Source: an uncultured Candidatus Saccharibacteria bacterium (lineage in GTDB: Bacteria; Patescibacteriota; WWE3; JAUXAW01; CAYREW01). Taken from it: a DNA stretch of 29,617 nucleotides. Shown one piece after another: positions 1 to 27,195 of the stretch (position 1 is its first letter; every line of letters starts with the position of its first letter). The translations under genes were made by a program, and so were the position numbers. Under the pieces are notes generated by a model. That model saw nothing but the letters and a program-made list of their open reading frames with translations. It made no database searches and was not told the origin of the DNA. The stretch is from positions 1 to 29,617 of the forward strand of contig CAYREW010000003.1 in assembly GCA_964423535.1 (NCBI GenBank), written 5' to 3'.

Positions 1-43
1 AGGTGCCGAACCGGGCCGTCGATATGGACTCTCGGGCCCGACT

Positions 44-77
<34 letters not shown>

Positions 78-619
78 GCCACAGCCCTTCCTAGAGGTGC
101 TGTGGGATCACTAAGACCAGCTTTCGCTTCTGCTTGATCCGTCAATCTTACAGTTAAGCCGGTTTATGCCTTTGCACTTACAGCGTGATTTCCATCCACG
201 CTAAACCGACCTTTGTGCGCCTGGGATACTCTTTTCCAGGCGACCGCCCCAGCCAAACTACCTCCCAGACGGTGTCCTCCCATCTTGATATAAAGATGGC
301 AGTGAGGCGCAGAAGTCACGAAGGTGGGTATTTCACTGGCGGCTCTGTTCCGACCGAAATCGGAACTTCAAAGCCTCCCCACTATGCTACGCAGCGCAAC
401 CGCTGAACCAACATCAAGTCGTAGTAAAGCTCCCGGGGTCTTTTCGTCCTGCGATGGGTAGGCCGCATCTTCACAGCCAATTCAAATTCACCGAGTCGGT
501 GGTCAAGACAGTGCTCAAGTCGTTAAGCCCTTCGTGCAGGCCGGAACTTACCCGGCAAGGGACCACGCTACCTTTGGACGATTAAGGTTATCGCCGCCAT
601 TCACCAGAGCTTCGATTCC

Positions 620-733
620 CCGCCCGCAGGGCGGGAAATTCCAAATCCCAAAATCCAAATCCCAAAATAAGGAAATTACCTTAATTTGAAAATTGTAAAT
701 TGAAAATTGTAAATTCCCTGTCCTACGGACAGG
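620..733 (-). repeat. Insert in 23S H68 variable arm (114 nt)
   Basis: Replaces about 30 nt near E. coli 1860-1880; hairpins ccgccc-gca-gggcgg and cctgtcc-tac-ggacagg flank an AT-rich 7-mer-periodic core. Confidence 0.85.
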
Positions 734-846
734 TCCTCTTAACTTGCTGGCATTGGGCAGGCTTCAGCCCCTATACATCAGCTTGCGCTTTAGCAGAGAC
801 CTGTGTTTTTGATAAACAGTCGCTTGAGCCATTTCTGTGCCCCCCA

Positions 847-1031
847 CCTCACACTCCGCGCGAGGAAATCCTAAATCCTAAATCCGAAGCTCCAAACTGT
901 TAAATCTAGAGCTGTAAACAAAACCGTTTCAAAATCTAAATACTGCTTGTTTAGTATTTTAAATTTTGTATTTCGAATTTGTTTGGAAATTAGGGTTTCG
1001 TGCTTAGAATTTCCTTGTGCGAAGCACAAGG
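847..1031 (-). repeat. Insert in 23S H63 (185 nt), family A
   Basis: Between conserved H62/H64 flanks; twin terminal hairpins; 147-nt core nearly identical to 2830-2996. Confidence 0.9.
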
Positions 1032-1571
1032 AAGGGCTGCCTTTTCCCAAAGTTACGGCAGTAATTTGCCTAGTTCCTTAACCACCGTTATCTCGCTCGC
1101 CTTAGAATACTCTTCTTGTCTACCTGTGGCGGTTTGCGGTACGGATTTATTATTTCTATAGCTTAGAGGCTTTTCTCGGAGACTTAACGCAGTAGAATCC
1201 CCCGACAAGTCGGAGTCTTCCACAGCTCGCTTTAAACGCAGGTGCGGATTTACCTACACCCACTAACTTGCTGCTTAAACGGCCAACCATATGGCCGCTC
1301 TACTTATCAAGTCCCGTCACCCCATCAGCAAAAATAATAAAGTAACGGAATATTAACCGTTTGCCCATCAGCTACCCCCCACCTGAAGCGGGGACTTGCC
1401 TTAGGACCGACTAACCCTACGTCGACGAACGTTGCGTAGGAAACCTTAGACTTTCGGCGATCCGGATTCTCACCGGATTTACACGTTACTCATGCCGGCA
1501 TTCTCACTTCTTAGCGCTCCAGACAAACTCACATTTGTCCTTCACCGCCCTAAGAACGCTCCCCTACCACA

Positions 1572-1732
1572 CCGCTGCGCAGCAGCGGAAATCCGAAACC
1601 CTAAACCCTAAGAACCAAATAAATACTAAAAACTAAACAACAATTCTTTTTTTTAGAATTTAGTGTTTCTTGTTTTGAGTTTATTTGGAACTTATAATTT
1701 CGAATTTCGTGCTTCCCGATGCTACGCATCGG
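1572..1732 (-). repeat. Intervening sequence in 23S H45 (161 nt)
   Basis: At the classical IVS site near E. coli 1170; ccgctgc-gca-gcagcgg and ccgatgc-tac-gcatcgg flank an AT-rich imperfect hairpin. Confidence 0.9.
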
Positions 1733-1792
1733 TATCCGCGACTTCGGTACAGAGCTTAAGCCCCGTTGAATTTTCGGCGCAGAAATACCAAG

Positions 1793-1825
<33 letters not shown>

Positions 1826-2369
1826 ATGGCTGCCTCTAGGCCAACCTCCTGGCTGTCTAAGTATTTCTACCTCCTTTTCCACTGAGCTCTGATTTAAGGA
1901 CCTTAGTCGGCGATCTGGGATGTTTCCCTTTTGACACATGGAACTTAGCTCCCATGGCCTGACTAGCACACACACTTTTAGGCATTCGGAGTTTGGTAGG
2001 ATGGAATACCTCTCACGAGGCTTCGCATCCTTCCAGTAGCTCTACCTCCTAAAAGCTTAAGTGTACCGCTAGCCCAAAAACTATTTCGGGGAGAGCCAGC
2101 TATCTCCAGGTTCGATTGGCATATTACCACTACCCTCAGCTCATCCAAAGCTTTTGCCTTAGCTAATGGTTCGGACCTCCCTCCGATTTTCATCAGAGTT
2201 CATCCTGGCCAAGGGTAGATCACCTGGTTTCGGGTCTGTACTCAGCTGTCTGCAGTAAACTGCACCCCCTGTTAAGAGTCGCTTTCGCTACGCCTTCGCC
2301 ACTAAAATGGCTTAGACTAAACAGGCTGAATACAACTCGCCGGCTCATTCTTCAATAGGCACAACATCA

Positions 2370-2505
2370 CCTCGCGCGCAGCGCGAGGAAATCAACTTTT
2401 TCTGCCGCCAGAAGCGGCAATCGTAAGAGACCTAAGATTCTTAAGTATCTTACGAGTTTCGACTTACATCGAAACAAGTGAGATTTCCTTGTGCTACGCA
2501 CAAGG
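2370..2505 (-). repeat. Intervening sequence in 23S H25 (136 nt), family B
   Basis: At the classical IVS site near E. coli 550; twin hairpins; 98-nt core nearly identical to 3122-3219. Confidence 0.9.
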
Positions 2506-2556
2506 CTTTGTCAGCTTGTAAGCAAATGGTTTCAGGTTCTATTTCACTCCCCTCCC

Positions 2557-2602
<46 letters not shown>

Positions 2603-2810
2603 GCTAAAAGTATTTAGCCTTGGGCCTAGGTCGGCCCTGTTTCCCACAAGATTTCTCGGGTCCCGTGGTACTCAGGAAACATTGCAAGAAGTTCAGTTAC
2701 CTTTCGAATACGGGGCTGTTGCCCTCTATGGCCTTGTTTTCCAACAAGTTCTTCTAGGTAACTAAATTTGTAACTTCTTTGATATTAAAATCTAGCAATG
2801 TCCTACAACA

Positions 2811-3015
2811 CCTCGCCCTACGGGCGAGGAAATCCTAAATCCTAAATCCCTGCCTGCCGGCAGGCAGGCGAAGCTCCAAACTGTTTAATCTGGAGCTGTA
2901 AACAAACCCGTTTCAAAATATCAACAATAATTGTTTAGTATTTTGAATTTTGTATTTCGAATTTGTTTGGAAATTAGGGTTTCGTGCTTAGAATTTCCTT
3001 GTCCGTAGGACAAGG
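2811..3015 (-). repeat. Insert in 23S H15/H16 region (205 nt), family A plus a 20-bp palindrome
   Basis: Near E. coli 270; same core as 866-1012 plus cctgcctgccggcaggcagg at 2849-2868. Confidence 0.88.
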
Positions 3016-3103
3016 TTTGGGCTTTTCCCTGTTCACTCGCCGCTACTTAGGGAATTTTTTCTTTTCCTTAGCCTACTTGGATGTTTCAGTTCGACTGGTT
3101 CCT

Positions 3104-3236
3104 CCCGCGCGCTGCGCACGAAAATCAACTTTTTCTGCCGCCAGAAGCGGCAGTCGTAAGAAACATAAGATTCTTAAGTATCTTACGAGTTTCGACTCAC
3201 ATCGAAACAGGTTGCATTTCCGTGTGCAACGCACGG
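3104..3236 (-). repeat. Insert in 23S H10 (about 133 nt), family B
   Basis: Between H9 and conserved GAACTGAAACATC; core matches the H25 insert. Confidence 0.85.
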
Positions 3237-3436
3237 CACCCGTGCTTGCACACGGGTAGGTTTCCCCATTCGGAAATCCTCGGATAATAATGCTTGCGGT
3301 AGCTCTCCGAGGCGTATCGTTGTATCCGCCACGTCCTTCATCAGCTTTTAGCGCCTAGGCATCCACCATTTGCCTTAAAATAAACGGACTACCCATTAAA
3401 CAAACACATTAAATATGTTTGTTAATGTTCTGTTCA

Positions 3437-3449
3437 GTTGTTAATGTGC
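3437..3449 (-). promoter_or_regulatory. boxA-like antitermination site before 23S
   Basis: GCACATTAACAAC; 12/13 identical to the leader copy at 7191-7203 and similar to boxA consensus TGCTCTTTAACA. Confidence 0.6.
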
Positions 3450-3529
3450 TAAATAATAATTACACTGAAACACAAAATTTCAGTGCAAGCCTAAACCTTA
3501 AAATAGATTTAAGGCTTAGTCTTCTTTTT

Positions 3530-3659
3530 GCCCTGCCCTCCTACGCATCGCTTGCCTACGGCAAGAAAAGCTTCGGCGGGCATCCTTCGCCCTAAGAACA
3601 TCGGTGGCGAAGGCCATCCTCCGGATGGCCTGCCATCCGAAGCCCGTAAGGGCGTAGGA
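3530..3659. repeat. REP-like palindrome cluster downstream of tRNA-Ala
   Basis: Hairpins cttgcc-tac-ggcaag, cggatggc/gccatccg, gccc-gtaa-gggc; 3621-3664 is identical to 4059-4102. Confidence 0.7.
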
Positions 3660-3734
3660 TGGTGGAGACGCCGGGATTTGAACCCGGGACCCCCACGATG
3701 CAAACGTGGTGCTCTTCCACTGAGCTACGTCCCC
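3660..3734 (-). tRNA. tRNA-Ala(TGC)
   Basis: 75-nt cloverleaf, G3:U70, anticodon TGC, encoded CCA. Confidence 0.97.
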
Positions 3735-3948
3735 TTAATTATCTACAAACAAGCCACAAACCCGCTCCGACAAGCGAAGCTTCGTCTGAGCTACGTCCCC
3801 GTAACAATAATTGGGTGCAAACAAAAACTGCTGGTTTTTCCAGCAGCGTAAAAAACATAACTAAGCAGTCTATAAAACTAAATCGGTTTAAGCACAAAAT
3901 TCCCGAAGAAGAAATACCTGTTAGTTAATTTTCTACGCATGTGTTTAA

Positions 3949-3977
3949 AGATTATCATCCGAAAAAAGCGGTGTCAA
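3949..3977 (-). promoter_or_regulatory. Internal sigma70-type promoter upstream of tRNA-Ala/23S
   Basis: TTGACA-17 nt-TAATCT with a TG extended -10. Confidence 0.65.
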
Positions 3978-3992
3978 TAGCACAAAAAAGCG

Positions 3993-4016
3993 AAAAAAAG
4001 ACGCCCTGTTAGGCGT
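3993..4016 (-). terminator. Putative intrinsic terminator after tRNA-Ile
   Basis: ACGCC-TAACAG-GGCGT followed by C and 7 T; short stem. Confidence 0.5.
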
Positions 4017-4097
4017 TATTGGTTATGTTTTGGATGGGTCCAGTACGCTTGCCCTCCCCCGGATGGCCTGCCATCCGAAGCCCGTAAGGGCGTAGGA

Positions 4098-4174
<77 letters not shown>

Positions 4175-4294
4175 ACAAACCTTGATCAAAACAGAGAAAA
4201 GTGCTCCCGCCTCACCAGCGGGTCGCCGATGCGGCAACTAAACCACTGAGCTACGAGCCCTAAGTATTTTTCCCTTGCAGGAAAAAAACTTATA

Positions 4295-4319
4295 AATGAA
4301 TTCTAAAAAGCGGGAAGAT
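4295..4319 (-). other. 3' arm of 16S processing stem (pairs with 7143-7167)
   Basis: aatgaattctaaaaagcgggaagat is 23/25 complementary to atcttcccgcttttcaaaattcatt. Confidence 0.75.
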
Positions 4320-4936
4320 GACGCAGTGTTTTAAACACTGCAATAGTCCTTTTTGAAGCATGTCAAAAATGACGACAATTATAAAAATTGCAGTTAATGT
4401 CATAAATGACATCGCTTCGTGGAAAAAACTCCCTAGAAAGGAGGTGATCCAGCCGCTCCTTCCAGAACGGCTACCTTGTTACAACTTACCCCTGATCACT
4501 GACCCTGCCTTAGCCCGCCTGCTGGCGGTTTTCGGGCAGTTTCAGCTTTCCTGGGCTGATGGGCGGTGTGTACAAGGCTCGAGAACGTATTCACCGCCGT
4601 ATGGCTGACCGGCGATTACTAGCGATTCCGACTTCATGAAGGCGAATTTCAGCCTTCAATCCGAACTGAGACCGCTTTTGAGGATTAGCTCCGCTTCACA
4701 GCTTGGCTACCCATTGTAGCGGCCATTGTAGCACGTGTGTCGCCCAGGGCATAAGGGCAATACTGACTTGACGTCGTCCCCACCTTCCTCCCCGTTGCCG
4801 GGGCAGTTCCGCTAGAGTGATACAACTAGCAGTAGGGGTTGCGATCGTTATAGGACTTAACCATACGCCTCACGGCACGAGCTGACGACCATGTTACCTG
4901 TTATTACTAACAGCACTGACTATACCATCATCCCAA

Positions 4937-5069
4937 TCGCGCCACGCGCGAAAATACGAAACCCTAAATCCGAAATCCGAAACAAAAAAAGCAGATTATT
5001 AAAAAACCACAATTCCATAAATTTCGTATTTCGATATTCGTGTTTCTTATTTCCGATGCGAAGCATCGG
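4937..5069 (-). repeat. Twin-hairpin AT-rich insert inside intron P8 loop
   Basis: cgcgc-cac-gcgcg and ccgatgc-gaa-gcatcgg flank an aaatccg-periodic core, enclosed by P8 tccca (4931-4935)/tggga (5071-5075). Confidence 0.8.
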
Positions 5070-5159
5070 CTGGGAGTTCGGCGTGTTATGGGTAAAAACC
5101 CATCTTCATTTACCAATAACCTCCGATTAAAGGTCTAGTAAAATCAAGTCGATACGGGG

Positions 5160-5807
5160 CTAAGGAAGCTTACCGTTATTTTGGACCTTAACAGAAAAAG
5201 GCCTTATTGATTTCAGAAATTTTTCTGAAATCTGCCATCCAAAATAGAGACAGTAGGTACCGGAAAAACCGTACTTGTAAATAACTGCCTCATAACCAAC
5301 ACTACCAACTATATCTTTATCCATCTCTGCCTCTCTTCTATTCTTGTACACGATCCTACAGTCAGATTTTAAATCTGAAGATACAGAACCATCGCCATCG
5401 AAACGCCCTCCAAAGAAAGCGCAGATGTCCCCTTTTTCTAGCAAAAAACTAGAACGAAGTTGTTCCCAACTTTTAAGACACCTTAAAAAAGGACGAGAAT
5501 TAACATATAGCTGAAATGCCGGTTGTGTGTGCTTATTACCTTTGCAGATTGAAGATTTAACCGCCTGTAAATTAGACGGTAAAACCTTTTTATTAAAAGA
5601 AATGTCTGTAGGCAAATAGACTCTGAGACGAAGCCGAGACAAAGTAAATTGCCTCAACAACAAATCAGAAAATCGTTCTAATAATGGTACTGAAACCGTT
5701 GTAATCCCTACACTACTGCTCCAATAATATTTGTCAGCACACCATAAACCCAAACAGTAAAAATCACTGTCTGTTTTCGCTTCCCAGCTTCCCACGGTAT
5801 TGTCCAT
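5160..5807 (-). CDS. Intron-encoded LAGLIDADG homing endonuclease (two-motif type)
   Basis: Motifs FYCLGLWCADKY and AFFGGRFDGDGSV; lies in the P6 loop of the intron. Confidence 0.88.
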   Translation of the reverse strand: MDNTVGSWEAKTDSDFYCLGLWCADKYYWSSSVGITTVSVPLLERFSDLLLRQFTLSRLRLRVYLPTDISFNKKVLPSNLQAVKSSICKGNKHTQPAFQLYVNSRPFLRCLKSWEQLRSSFLLEKGDICAFFGGRFDGDGSVSSDLKSDCRIVYKNRREAEMDKDIVGSVGYEAVIYKYGFSGTYCLYFGWQISEKFLKSIRPFSVKVQNNGKLP

Positions 5808-5998
5808 TAGATTTAGAATAAACTAAAACTAGGTTGGAGTCCACCGTTATGAGCCGAATTTGCTCCGACAGTTACCCGTCGGAGGGCCAATCGTCAATTA
5901 GCCATGCAACACCTGTTCCGACACCCCGATATAAAATCGGGGAAACCTCCTTTCAGAGGCGGTCGTCGGAATGTCAAGCCCTGGTAAGATTCTTCGGT

Positions 5999-6036
<38 letters not shown>

Positions 6037-6037
6037 A

Positions 6038-6071
<34 letters not shown>

Positions 6072-6722
6072 ACCGTACTCCCCAGGCGGGATACTTAACG
6101 CGTTAGCTTCGACAATGAGTCCGACAAAATCGAACCCATTACCCAGTATCCAACGTTTAGGGCTAGGACTACAGGGGTCTCTAATCCCTTTCGCTACCCT
6201 AGCTTTCGTACCTCAGCGTCAACATCGGGCCAGAAGGCTGCCTTCGCCTTTGGTGTTCCTCCGGAGATCATTGGATTTCACCCCTACTCCCGGAATTCCG
6301 CCTTCCCCTCCCGTGTTCAAGATAAATAGTTTTCTAGGCCTTTCCCCGGTTGAGCCGGGGTATTTGACCTAAAACTTATCTACCCGCCTACGTACTCTTT
6401 ACGCCCAGTAAGACCGGATAACGCTCGAGGCCTCCGTTTGACCGCTGCTGCTGGCACGAAGTTGGCAGCCTCTATTTAACAGGAGTTTACAACCCGAAGG
6501 CATTCATCCTCCACGCGGCGTCGCTGCGTCAGGGTTTCCCCCATTGCGCAAGATTCCTGATTGCTGCCACCCGTAGGTGTAGGGCCCGTGTTTCAGTGCC
6601 CTTGTGGCCGAACATCCTCTCAGACCGGCTACCCGTCATAGCCTTGGTGGGCCTTTACCTCACCAACAAGCTGATAGGCCGCGGGCCCGTCTCTGAGTAA
6701 AGGGTCTAAAGACCCTCCTTTA

Positions 6723-6884
6723 CTAGTTGAAGAACAAAACAGAGAAAAAGAATTACTAATTACTAATTTCTAATTACTAATGAAGTAACAAAATTGTGCG
6801 TTTCTACAAATAAAACCCTACAGGTTTCATTAGAAATTAGTTATTAGATATTAGAAATTTTTCCCCGCTTAGCTCTTCAACTAG
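6723..6884 (-). repeat. Insert in 16S h9: 11-bp stem plus 140-nt CTAATTW-periodic hairpin
   Basis: ctagttgaaga/tcttcaactag enclose inverted arms of ctaatta/ctaattt and ttagaaa/ttagata units. Confidence 0.85.
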
Positions 6885-7190
6885 ACCATGGTGTATTAGC
6901 CAACCTTTCGGCCGGTTATTCACCTCTCAGAGGTAGGTTCCCACGTGTTACTCACCCGTCCGCGACTATCCCGACACGAGGTCGGGACCGTTTCACTTGC
7001 ATACCTTAAGCACGCCGCCAGCGTTCATCCTGAGCCAAGATCAAACTCTTATAAAAAATACGAGTACTATATCTTAACGATAATACGCTAAAATAAAACT
7101 CTTAGAAATACAGCTGTAATTGACTATACAGCTGGTAAAAAAATCTTCCCGCTTTTCAAAATTCATTACATTAATATAAATTAAAAAGCT

Positions 7191-26056: not shown

Positions 26057-26595
26057 TATTGGGCCCCGCATTCTGCGGGGCCAGATTAGCTCTAAACTCA
26101 CTACGAACCTTCGGTTCTTGTTCGTTAAGAAGCTATCTGGTACCGGTGGCAGGATTTCCAAAGTTCCACTTGACAAGCGCCAGCGCGTCTAGTGGCAACT
26201 TGGACCCCGCTGAAGTGTAACAAAAGCGGGGCGAACCTAATCATTCAACAGCTTATCCAAAGCTTCACCACCTTTATATGCTTTAAGCTCTTTTTCCCTT
26301 TTGAACGCTTCTTTACGAGTTGCATATTCCTCCGTATATATAACAATGAACGGTACTTGATGCTTAATTGAGGAAGTCCTACCGCTGTTGTGCTCTCCTA
26401 AACGATTTTCAATGTTTTGCGTTATACCTATATATTTACGCCCTGTTTTTTGACTTTTTAATATATAAACTGTCCACATTCTAGTTAATTTTGTGTATTG
26501 GGCCCCGCATTCTGCGGGGCCAGATTAGCTCTAAACTCACTACGAACCTTCGGTTCTTGTTCGTTAAGAAGCTATCTGGTACCGGTGGCAGGATT
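26057..26595. repeat. 100-bp exact direct repeat (26057-26156, 26496-26595) including the tRNA 3' 19 nt
   Basis: Copies compared base by base; 439-bp period enclosing the GIY-YIG gene. Confidence 0.93.
26237..26479 (-). CDS. GIY-YIG nuclease family protein (80 aa)
   Basis: VYIL..YIG..RL.EHN..A.KRE.ELK motifs. Confidence 0.92.
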   Translation of the reverse strand: MWTVYILKSQKTGRKYIGITQNIENRLGEHNSGRTSSIKHQVPFIVIYTEEYATRKEAFKREKELKAYKGGEALDKLLND

Positions 26596-26651
26596 CGAAC
26601 CTGCGACACAAGGGTTATGATCCCTCTGCTCTGCCCCTGAGCTACACCGGC
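26577..26651 (-). tRNA. tRNA with CAT anticodon (elongator Met more likely than Ile2)
   Basis: 75-nt cloverleaf, TTCGAAT T-loop, CCA; G4/G5 rather than C4/C5. Confidence 0.9.
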
Positions 26652-26682
26652 AAATTTATATATAAAGTGTAGCATGCCTAAC

Positions 26683-26711
26683 TTGAAGAAAACAACTACT
26701 TATGTTAGAGT
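26683..26711 (+). promoter_or_regulatory. Promoter for the plus-strand tRNA
   Basis: TTGAAG-17-TAGAGT with a TG extension. Confidence 0.55.
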
Positions 26712-26737
26712 AACAGTGCCTCTAAAAGGGTAGATAA

Positions 26738-26814
26738 AGCGGGCGGGAGGTATAGAATCTCGCCAGGCTCATAACCTGGAAGAACCTCGGGGCGGATCCG
26801 AGGGCCCGCGACCA
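26738..26814 (+). tRNA. Non-canonical initiator-like tRNA-Met(CAT)
   Basis: A1xG72 mismatch, GCGGG/CCCGC acceptor, CTCATAA loop and CCA, but T-loop GGCGGAT and no D-loop GG. Confidence 0.72.
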
Positions 26815-26820
26815 ACTTTT

Positions 26821-27195
26821 TTAAAACCCCAACAACTCTACCCACTGTTTCCAAACAGCAGAAACCTCCTCTGAAGTAGAATTTAAACTAAGCACATCCC
26901 CACTATTATCAGTACTGTTGTTATCGGCAATTTTCCGAGGCAAAACAACCATTTTCTCCCCTTCTTTAACCATTTGCAAACGGTTCCGCGCTTCCTGTTC
27001 AACATATTCCAGTGATTTTCGCCAGGAAGCCACCTTTTCTAACCTTTTCTTTTCTTCCTCTTCTGCCTCTACTGCTTGCTCTAATGAATGCAACCGCTCT
27101 TGTGCGGAATAAAGTTTCCACAAAGAACGAGCCAGGCTAACAACCAGGATTAGCCCCACAATTAAAACAAAAAAAGAAAGAAACTTACTTTTCAT
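26821..27195 (-). CDS. Septum formation initiator (FtsB/DivIC) family protein
   Basis: N-terminal TM, coiled coil, EYVEQEARNRLQMVKEGE motif. Confidence 0.85.
   Translation of the reverse strand: MKSKFLSFFVLIVGLILVVSLARSLWKLYSAQERLHSLEQAVEAEEEEKKRLEKVASWRKSLEYVEQEARNRLQMVKEGEKMVVLPRKIADNNSTDNSGDVLSLNSTSEEVSAVWKQWVELLGF

Follow-up and report, generated by a model that had tools for sequence, protein, structure and literature searches.

According to a review of T-loop conservation, U54, pseudouridine 55 and C56 are universal and the eukaryotic initiator is the one special case; U54, pseudouridine 55, A58, U8, A14 and G18 are treated there as near-universal features of tRNA (PMC7912444). The eukaryotic initiator tRNAi-Met departs from T54 by carrying a purine-purine A54:A58 pair (PMC7912444). 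In the anticodon stem, the middle G30-C40 pair is the functionally essential part of the rule of three consecutive G-C pairs in Escherichia coli, and the au/GC/GC stem is a known natural variant: mycoplasma and alpha-proteobacterial initiators of the au/GC/GC and au/GC/gu types, in which the first and/or third G-C pair is replaced and G30-C40 kept, sustain E. coli (PMC5389676). As to formylation of the initiator, a 2025 survey of reference genomes treats fmt and def as conserved throughout the bacteria, endosymbionts excepted (PMC12690207). Our search of the literature returned no description of A18/G55 tRNAs, of aberrant initiators in CPR bacteria, or of the loss of fmt and def in CPR.

Here we describe a tRNA gene in a 29,617-nt stretch of DNA (the window) from a bacterium of the WWE3 class of the Patescibacteria. 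The gene very probably encodes a functional initiator tRNA that is used unformylated and whose remodelled elbow is held by co-evolved tertiary contacts. It is apparently the only initiator of this bacterium, and it lacks all six of the bases U54, pseudouridine 55, A58, U8, A14 and G18. The source genome (G000) is a 0.75 Mb assembly of 81 contigs, 86% complete; a sister genome of the same genus (G001) is 94% complete.

The tRNA gene and its fold

The gene occupies positions 26738-26814 of the forward strand (77 nt, CCA encoded). It matches a covariance model at 94.6 bits with identical ends and is 100% identical in the sister genome. Its acceptor stem is formed by 26738-26744 and 26804-26810, with A1 standing unpaired opposite G72 (26810) and followed by G2-C71 and C3-G70; the 3' strand runs on through the discriminator A73 into the encoded CCA (26804-26814, with ACCA at 26811-26814). 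Positions 26745-26757 hold G8, G9, the 5' strand of a 4-bp D stem with A11 paired to U24, and a 7-nt D loop, UAUAGAA, which contains U14, an A in the place of G18 and a single G (G19). The anticodon arm (26763-26779) has a 5-bp stem with A29-U41, G30-C40 and G31-C39, and a 7-nt loop CUCAUAA (26768-26774) with U33, A37 and the CAT triplet at 26770-26772. A variable loop of 5 nt leads to the T arm (26785-26803), in which a 6-bp stem (26785-26790 with 26798-26803) closes the loop GGCGGAU (26791-26797), read as G54, G55, C56, G57 and G58. Of the usual tertiary core, U8:A14, G18-psi55, G19-C56 and T54:A58, only the equivalent of G19-C56 is kept. The cloverleaf is the minimum-free-energy fold of the element (-36 kcal/mol, z = -2.78), equalled by 3 of 200 shuffles. 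A first-pass annotation made from the letters alone had described the same cloverleaf with the same odd bases (the T loop, the 6-bp T stem, G8 and U14, A opposite G at 1:72, and A29-U41), and all are present in the sequence as read.

The same annotation had listed both CCA and a promoter. The CCA stands; the promoter is only a weak TTGAAG-17-TAGAGT match (26683-26711, forward strand) picked out by eye at 8/12, below the threshold of the scan and not conserved in the sister genome, where the upstream flank is entirely different. The promoter and terminator scan around the gene returned no convincing upstream promoter and no terminator, and its sole promoter match nearby overlaps the tRNA body. 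A run of six T at 26817-26822 on the forward strand, 2 nt past the CCA end and uncalled by the scan, is a possible transcription stop. A coding explanation was rejected: the sole overlapping ORF, of 49 aa with a TTG start, is on the minus strand; the genuine gene next to it stops at 26821; and conservation ends at the ends of the tRNA.

The first-pass annotation had held that standard tRNA finders may miss the gene, and ARAGORN and the Rfam tRNA model do. ARAGORN at default settings makes no call at 26738-26814, the neighbouring tRNA-Met being its only call there; it recovers the gene only with thresholds lowered to 90%, among some 12 extra calls. The Rfam tRNA model (RF00005) gives no match at its gathering score of 29 bits, and a search of the 501 nt from 26500 to 27000 at E<=10 assigns no family to the element on either strand, its only matches being noise over the neighbouring tRNA. 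The Rfam model also misses all 77-nt G8/U14 relatives tested, and ARAGORN misses the G54 forms among the class initiators. Genomes carrying the present form would thus be annotated as having no initiator tRNA, and tRNA counts would be understated in the lineages concerned.

Comparison with described tRNAs

The gene carries the marks of a bacterial initiator, CAU, an unpaired 1:72, A11:U24, G2-C71, C3-G70, A73-CCA and G30-C40, and shares every one of them with E. coli tRNA-fMet of the metZWV/metY type. These identity elements, together with the GGCGGAU loop, bear out its original description as an initiator-like tRNA without the T-psi-C signature. In many members of the class the acceptor stem is nearly identical to that of E. 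coli tRNA-fMet, and A11:U24, the anticodon arm and ACCA are also common to both. The differences are equally plain. At 1:72 the present tRNA has A opposite G where E. coli has C opposite A; its anticodon stem is au/GC/GC, not three G-C pairs; U8, A14, G18, T54, psi55 and A58 are all missing; the D loop has 7 nt and the T stem 6 bp; and the lineage is without formyltransferase or deformylase.

Base frequencies were counted over 59 distinct initiator sequences of the WWE3 class, drawn from related genomes and hence non-independent. In this set 1:72 is unpaired in 52 sequences and G30-C40 is invariant (59/59), while 11:24 is A:U in 40, U:A in 16 and G:C in 3. The run of three consecutive G-C pairs at 29-31:39-41, which the present tRNA lacks, is complete in only 2 of the 59.

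The replacement of a G-C pair in the anticodon stem with retention of G30-C40 is shared with the mycoplasma and alpha-proteobacterial variants, which to our knowledge keep a canonical elbow. With eukaryotic tRNAi-Met the tRNA has in common a purine-purine pair at 54:58 and use without formylation; tRNAi-Met, however, pairs A1 with U72 (A1:U72), has 5 bp in its T stem and has kept psi55, G18 and G19; the two are of unrelated descent, so that the parallel is one of design only. In bacterial tRNA-Sec, acceptor and T helices of 8 and 5 bp give a stack of 13 layers that helps to exclude EF-Tu. The present tRNA likewise has a 13-position acceptor and T coaxial stack rather than one of 12, but divided as 7/6, in a molecule with a CAU anticodon and without a long variable arm.

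Conservation and covariation of the stems

A BLAST search against 40 relatives (G001-G040) found, besides the identical copy in G001, homologues of 76-88% identity in 8 other genomes of the class, with similarity starting and stopping at the ends of the tRNA. A covariance model built from 10 homologues (R1) has a match in 128 of 134 genomes of the WWE3 class, and in 119 of them a single match of at least 54 bits. Pairing is kept in 96.7% of the pair cells of the 10 aligned homologues, with double-sided changes at 8 pairs, a combination of pairing and covariation reached by none of 500 shuffles; registers slid by 1-3 columns are at most 53% paired. Pairs 2-6 of the acceptor are invariant in this alignment and 1:72 is unpaired in 7 of the 10. 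An alignment of 16 distinct sequences with six-bp T stems gives 97.9% of pair cells paired, with 10 pairs changing on both sides. The 6-bp T stem is itself 100% paired in these sequences, and 4 of its 6 pairs, the outermost included, change on both sides. Pairs 2:71 and 3:70 are invariant in both alignments.

The element at 26738-26814 is thus a conserved gene, neither a chance fold nor a decaying one, and its alignments indicate clear purifying and compensatory selection on the tRNA. Intact pairing had earlier been taken to argue against simple decay; the conserved orthologues, with compensatory changes in all four stems, agree with that reading. Covariation in relatives, put forward as a check, extends beyond the stems to the tertiary pairs.

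A rewired elbow

The tertiary positions change in matched pairs across the class. At 18:55, an AG D loop goes with G55 in 34 of the 59 sequences and a GG D loop with U55 in 24; the single apparent exception results from a chance GG elsewhere in the D loop. Position pair 54:58 is U:A in 51, G:G in 6, A:U in 1 and C:A in 1, and 8:14 is U:A in 46, G:U in 12 and G:A in 1. C56 and its D-loop partner G never change in the 59 sequences. The matched swaps also hold in 95 further distinct sequences, among the matches listed by a pattern scan, and in a phylum-wide sample. The scan covered 185,579 species genomes and yielded at least 120 matches, which serve as examples and not as a distribution. Some TPA MAGs carry organism labels ("Gammaproteobacteria", "Saccharibacteria") that seem untrustworthy, and these labels were set aside.

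The states form a nested series. In forms of 74-75 nt A18:G55 stands by itself; G8:U14 and the 6-bp T stem come next, and G54:G58 is added last, in the form found at 26738-26814. Judged by its bases, the present gene is the most derived form, combining G54:G58, G8:U14, a 7/6 acceptor/T stack and A opposite G at 1:72. Both states of 18:55 are found within families f13 and f16, and the switch therefore happened more than once. The matched swaps, together with the covariation of the 6-bp T stem, indicate that the elbow has been kept but is built differently, and the contact geometries of A18-G55, G54-G58 and G8-U14 are predicted from the covariation. The initiator variants of the class can be seen as natural "double-mutant cycles" for three contacts of the elbow and core, and the gene at 26738-26814 also links the rewired initiator to a formylation-free lineage.

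Two initiator-like genes of family f9 (L069 and L070, in G013 and G023) end in ACAA or ACTG and combine U1-A72 and G8:U14 with a TTCGATT loop; their T arm pairs uncleanly in the register of the model.

Identity of the initiator

ARAGORN reports 24 tRNAs in the whole source assembly, one CAU tRNA among them, and all 24 have GG D loops, GTTCRA T loops, U8 and A14; CCA is encoded by all 25 tRNA genes seen in this genome. A canonical tRNA(CAU) lies beside the present gene on the minus strand (26577-26651; called by ARAGORN, 64.5 bits in Rfam). It has G1-U72, C2-G71, C11:G24, GG and TTC loops, and G29-31:C39-41, and is read as the elongator tRNA-Met because its G1-U72, C2-G71 and C11:G24 are of the elongator type. 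An exchange of roles, in which this neighbour would be the initiator and the present gene an elongator tRNA-Met or a lysidine-type tRNA-Ile2, could appeal to the three G-C pairs and canonical loops of the neighbour; it is nonetheless the least probable of the alternatives considered here, given the elongator-type pairs just named and the unpaired 1:72 and A11:U24 of the present gene, whose acceptor stem we take to be that of E. coli tRNA-fMet. The tRNA-Ile2 version is also opposed by the distribution of TilS (PF01171), which at the curated cut-off was not found in the source genome or its order and passes in a single one of 21 genomes (the source genome and 20 relatives), and by the presence in class members of tRNA-Ile(UAU) genes, which adjoin the initiators at L028 and L035. 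With TilS not found in 20 of 21 genomes and tRNA-Ile(UAU) present in the class, no Ile2(CAU) is expected and only two CAU tRNAs are; AUA in the WWE3 class is probably read without lysidine.

A decaying initiator pseudogene, with a working canonical tRNA-fMet hidden in the unassembled 14% of the genome, would fit an assembly of 86% completeness in 81 contigs with only 24 detected tRNAs, and a gene that fails both ARAGORN and Rfam. We regard it as very improbable, if slightly less so than the exchange of roles. The 94% complete sister genome has an identical copy, and no second initiator is seen there; orthologues in several families show the same odd features, and their stems and tertiary pairs carry compensatory changes. 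The first-pass annotation had raised the question of another tRNA-fMet elsewhere in the genome; no canonical initiator was found in G000, G001, G002, G008, G016, G019, G021 or G026. Canonical initiators score 56-66 bits with R1, so that one present would have been listed, and the second-best R1 matches in G000, G008, G019 and G021 are tRNA-Gln or tRNA-Lys. A tRNA-like RNA with some other role, whether carried by a mobile element or phage, used as an integration target or mimicking a tRNA, is also improbable, though a little less remote than a pseudogene. In its favour, G55-type initiator-like copies do occur outside CPR beside a canonical initiator (Verrucomicrobium sp., Euryhalocaulis). Against it, the present gene is the only initiator candidate in its genome, nearly every genome of the class has one copy, the usual neighbour is the elongator tRNA-Met, and every element needed for charging and for use in the P site is kept. 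A working initiator, apparently the only one of the source genome, is by far the most probable reading of the gene.

The class initiator usually adjoins the elongator tRNA-Met, and the arrangement of the two differs between the closest genomes. They are divergent in the source genome, the elongator lying upstream on the minus strand, and in tandem on one strand in the sister genome (L002/L226), where the elongator lies about 160 nt downstream of the initiator at a contig end. The difference is a local rearrangement.

Formylation and tRNA-processing genes

Neither Fmt (PF00551) nor Def (PF01327) was found in the source genome or in any of 8 relatives of its order. Among 41 WWE3 genomes (the source genome and 40 relatives) the two are absent together from the same 21 and present together in the other 20, and the absentees include the whole order of the source genome and genomes that are 95-100% complete. 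Because both are missing, from near-complete genomes too, the initiator is very probably used unformylated, and in a lineage without Fmt and Def the gene at 26738-26814 is better called an initiator tRNA-Met than a tRNA-fMet. The lineage most likely starts its proteins with unformylated methionine, and the co-absence suggests that free-standing CPR lineages initiate without formylation. With both genes missing in about half of the WWE3 genomes sampled, the class offers a natural system for formylation-free bacterial initiation.

Other genes that act on tRNA are distributed unevenly. TruB is absent in G000 and G001; of the 7 relatives with non-U54 initiators 6 lack it, whereas in the class as a whole 96 of 134 genomes have it. 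Of 21 genomes (the source genome and 20 relatives), 18 have no class II CCA-adding enzyme (PF01743), the source genome and its order among them, and in two of the three genomes that have it (G011 and G013) the initiator genes do not end in CCA. The source genome carries MetRS (G000:C23:9190-10335), IF2, Pth and a bacterial RNase P RNA resembling type A. IF3 was not found in its assembly and is present in all 20 relatives searched, which makes the absence an assembly gap. The RNase P RNA (G000:C6:15396-15837) is divergent: it matches the type-A model over the full length, but with 81.6 bits where the gathering score is 100.

A possible route to the rewired initiator

The conserved identity elements suggest that MetRS would charge the tRNA through its CAU anticodon, that the unpaired A opposite G at 1:72 would keep it out of the elongation pathway, and that G30-C40 would license it for the ribosomal P site under the control of IF3. 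Covariation indicates that the L-shape is kept by alternative contacts: A18 with G55 replaces G18 with pseudouridine 55 while G19-C56 is retained, the purine-purine G54:G58 takes the place of T54:A58 and G8:U14 that of U8:A14, and the T stem, lengthened to 6 bp, gives the 7/6 acceptor/T stack. Only an initiator, we suppose, could drift so far, as it would never bind EF-Tu or enter the A site. With several enzymes that read the elbow or upper half of tRNA (TruB, the CCA-adding enzyme and Fmt) missing in the lineage, that constraint too may have been escaped. Escape from EF-Tu, the A site and the elbow-reading enzymes would let the initiator core be rewired while the 24 elongators stayed canonical.

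This argument from relaxed constraint is not clean. G54:G58 is found in the Fmt-positive genomes G015, G016 and G021, which rules out a strict tie between that pair and the loss of Fmt. Loss of TruB is likewise rejected as a sufficient cause of G55: many genomes with A18:G55 (f4, f5, f16) do have TruB, and f8, without TruB, keeps a canonical TTC T loop.

A more far-reaching proposal, which we consider speculative and rather unlikely, is that in formyl-free WWE3 initiation the body of the tRNA (54:58, A18:G55, G8:U14 and the 13-layer 7/6 stack) might itself discriminate initiator from elongator, converging on the T-loop marking of eukaryotes, with the longer T stem replacing the 1:72 mismatch as the anti-determinant for EF-Tu. 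Positions 1 and 72 are paired (U-A or U-G) in 8 of the 19 relatives without Fmt and in 1 of the 16 with it. They are also paired in 9 of 16 forms with six-bp T stems. Coming from related genomes, these counts are no more than suggestive.

Related records and the wider window

Among the matches listed by the pattern scan, G55-type initiator-like tRNAs outside CPR are always additional to a canonical initiator of the genome. These extra CAU tRNAs have a 4-nt D loop, an anticodon stem of 6-7 bp and an NGC T loop, with the canonical initiator elsewhere; those listed include L150/L219 (Verrucomicrobium sp. BvORR034), L109, L123, L130, L151, L152, L180, L190 and L200, and, in Acidobacteria, L138, L147, L174 and L204. 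In several records of the Microgenomates type (L118, L155, L165, L186, L207, L176, L181 and L185) the 3' half of an initiator, from CATAA on, is preceded by sequence other than a tRNA 5' half, as would be expected if the initiator gene were interrupted, by an insertion or an intron, within or beside its anticodon loop.

At the other end of the window, the rRNA genes lie within positions 1-7051, where a 16S model of 1478 positions is matched over 2613 nt and a 23S model of 2526 positions over 3389 nt. The oversize matches indicate that the rRNA genes of the source genome carry large insertions or introns. The spacer between them holds tRNA-Ile and tRNA-Ala.
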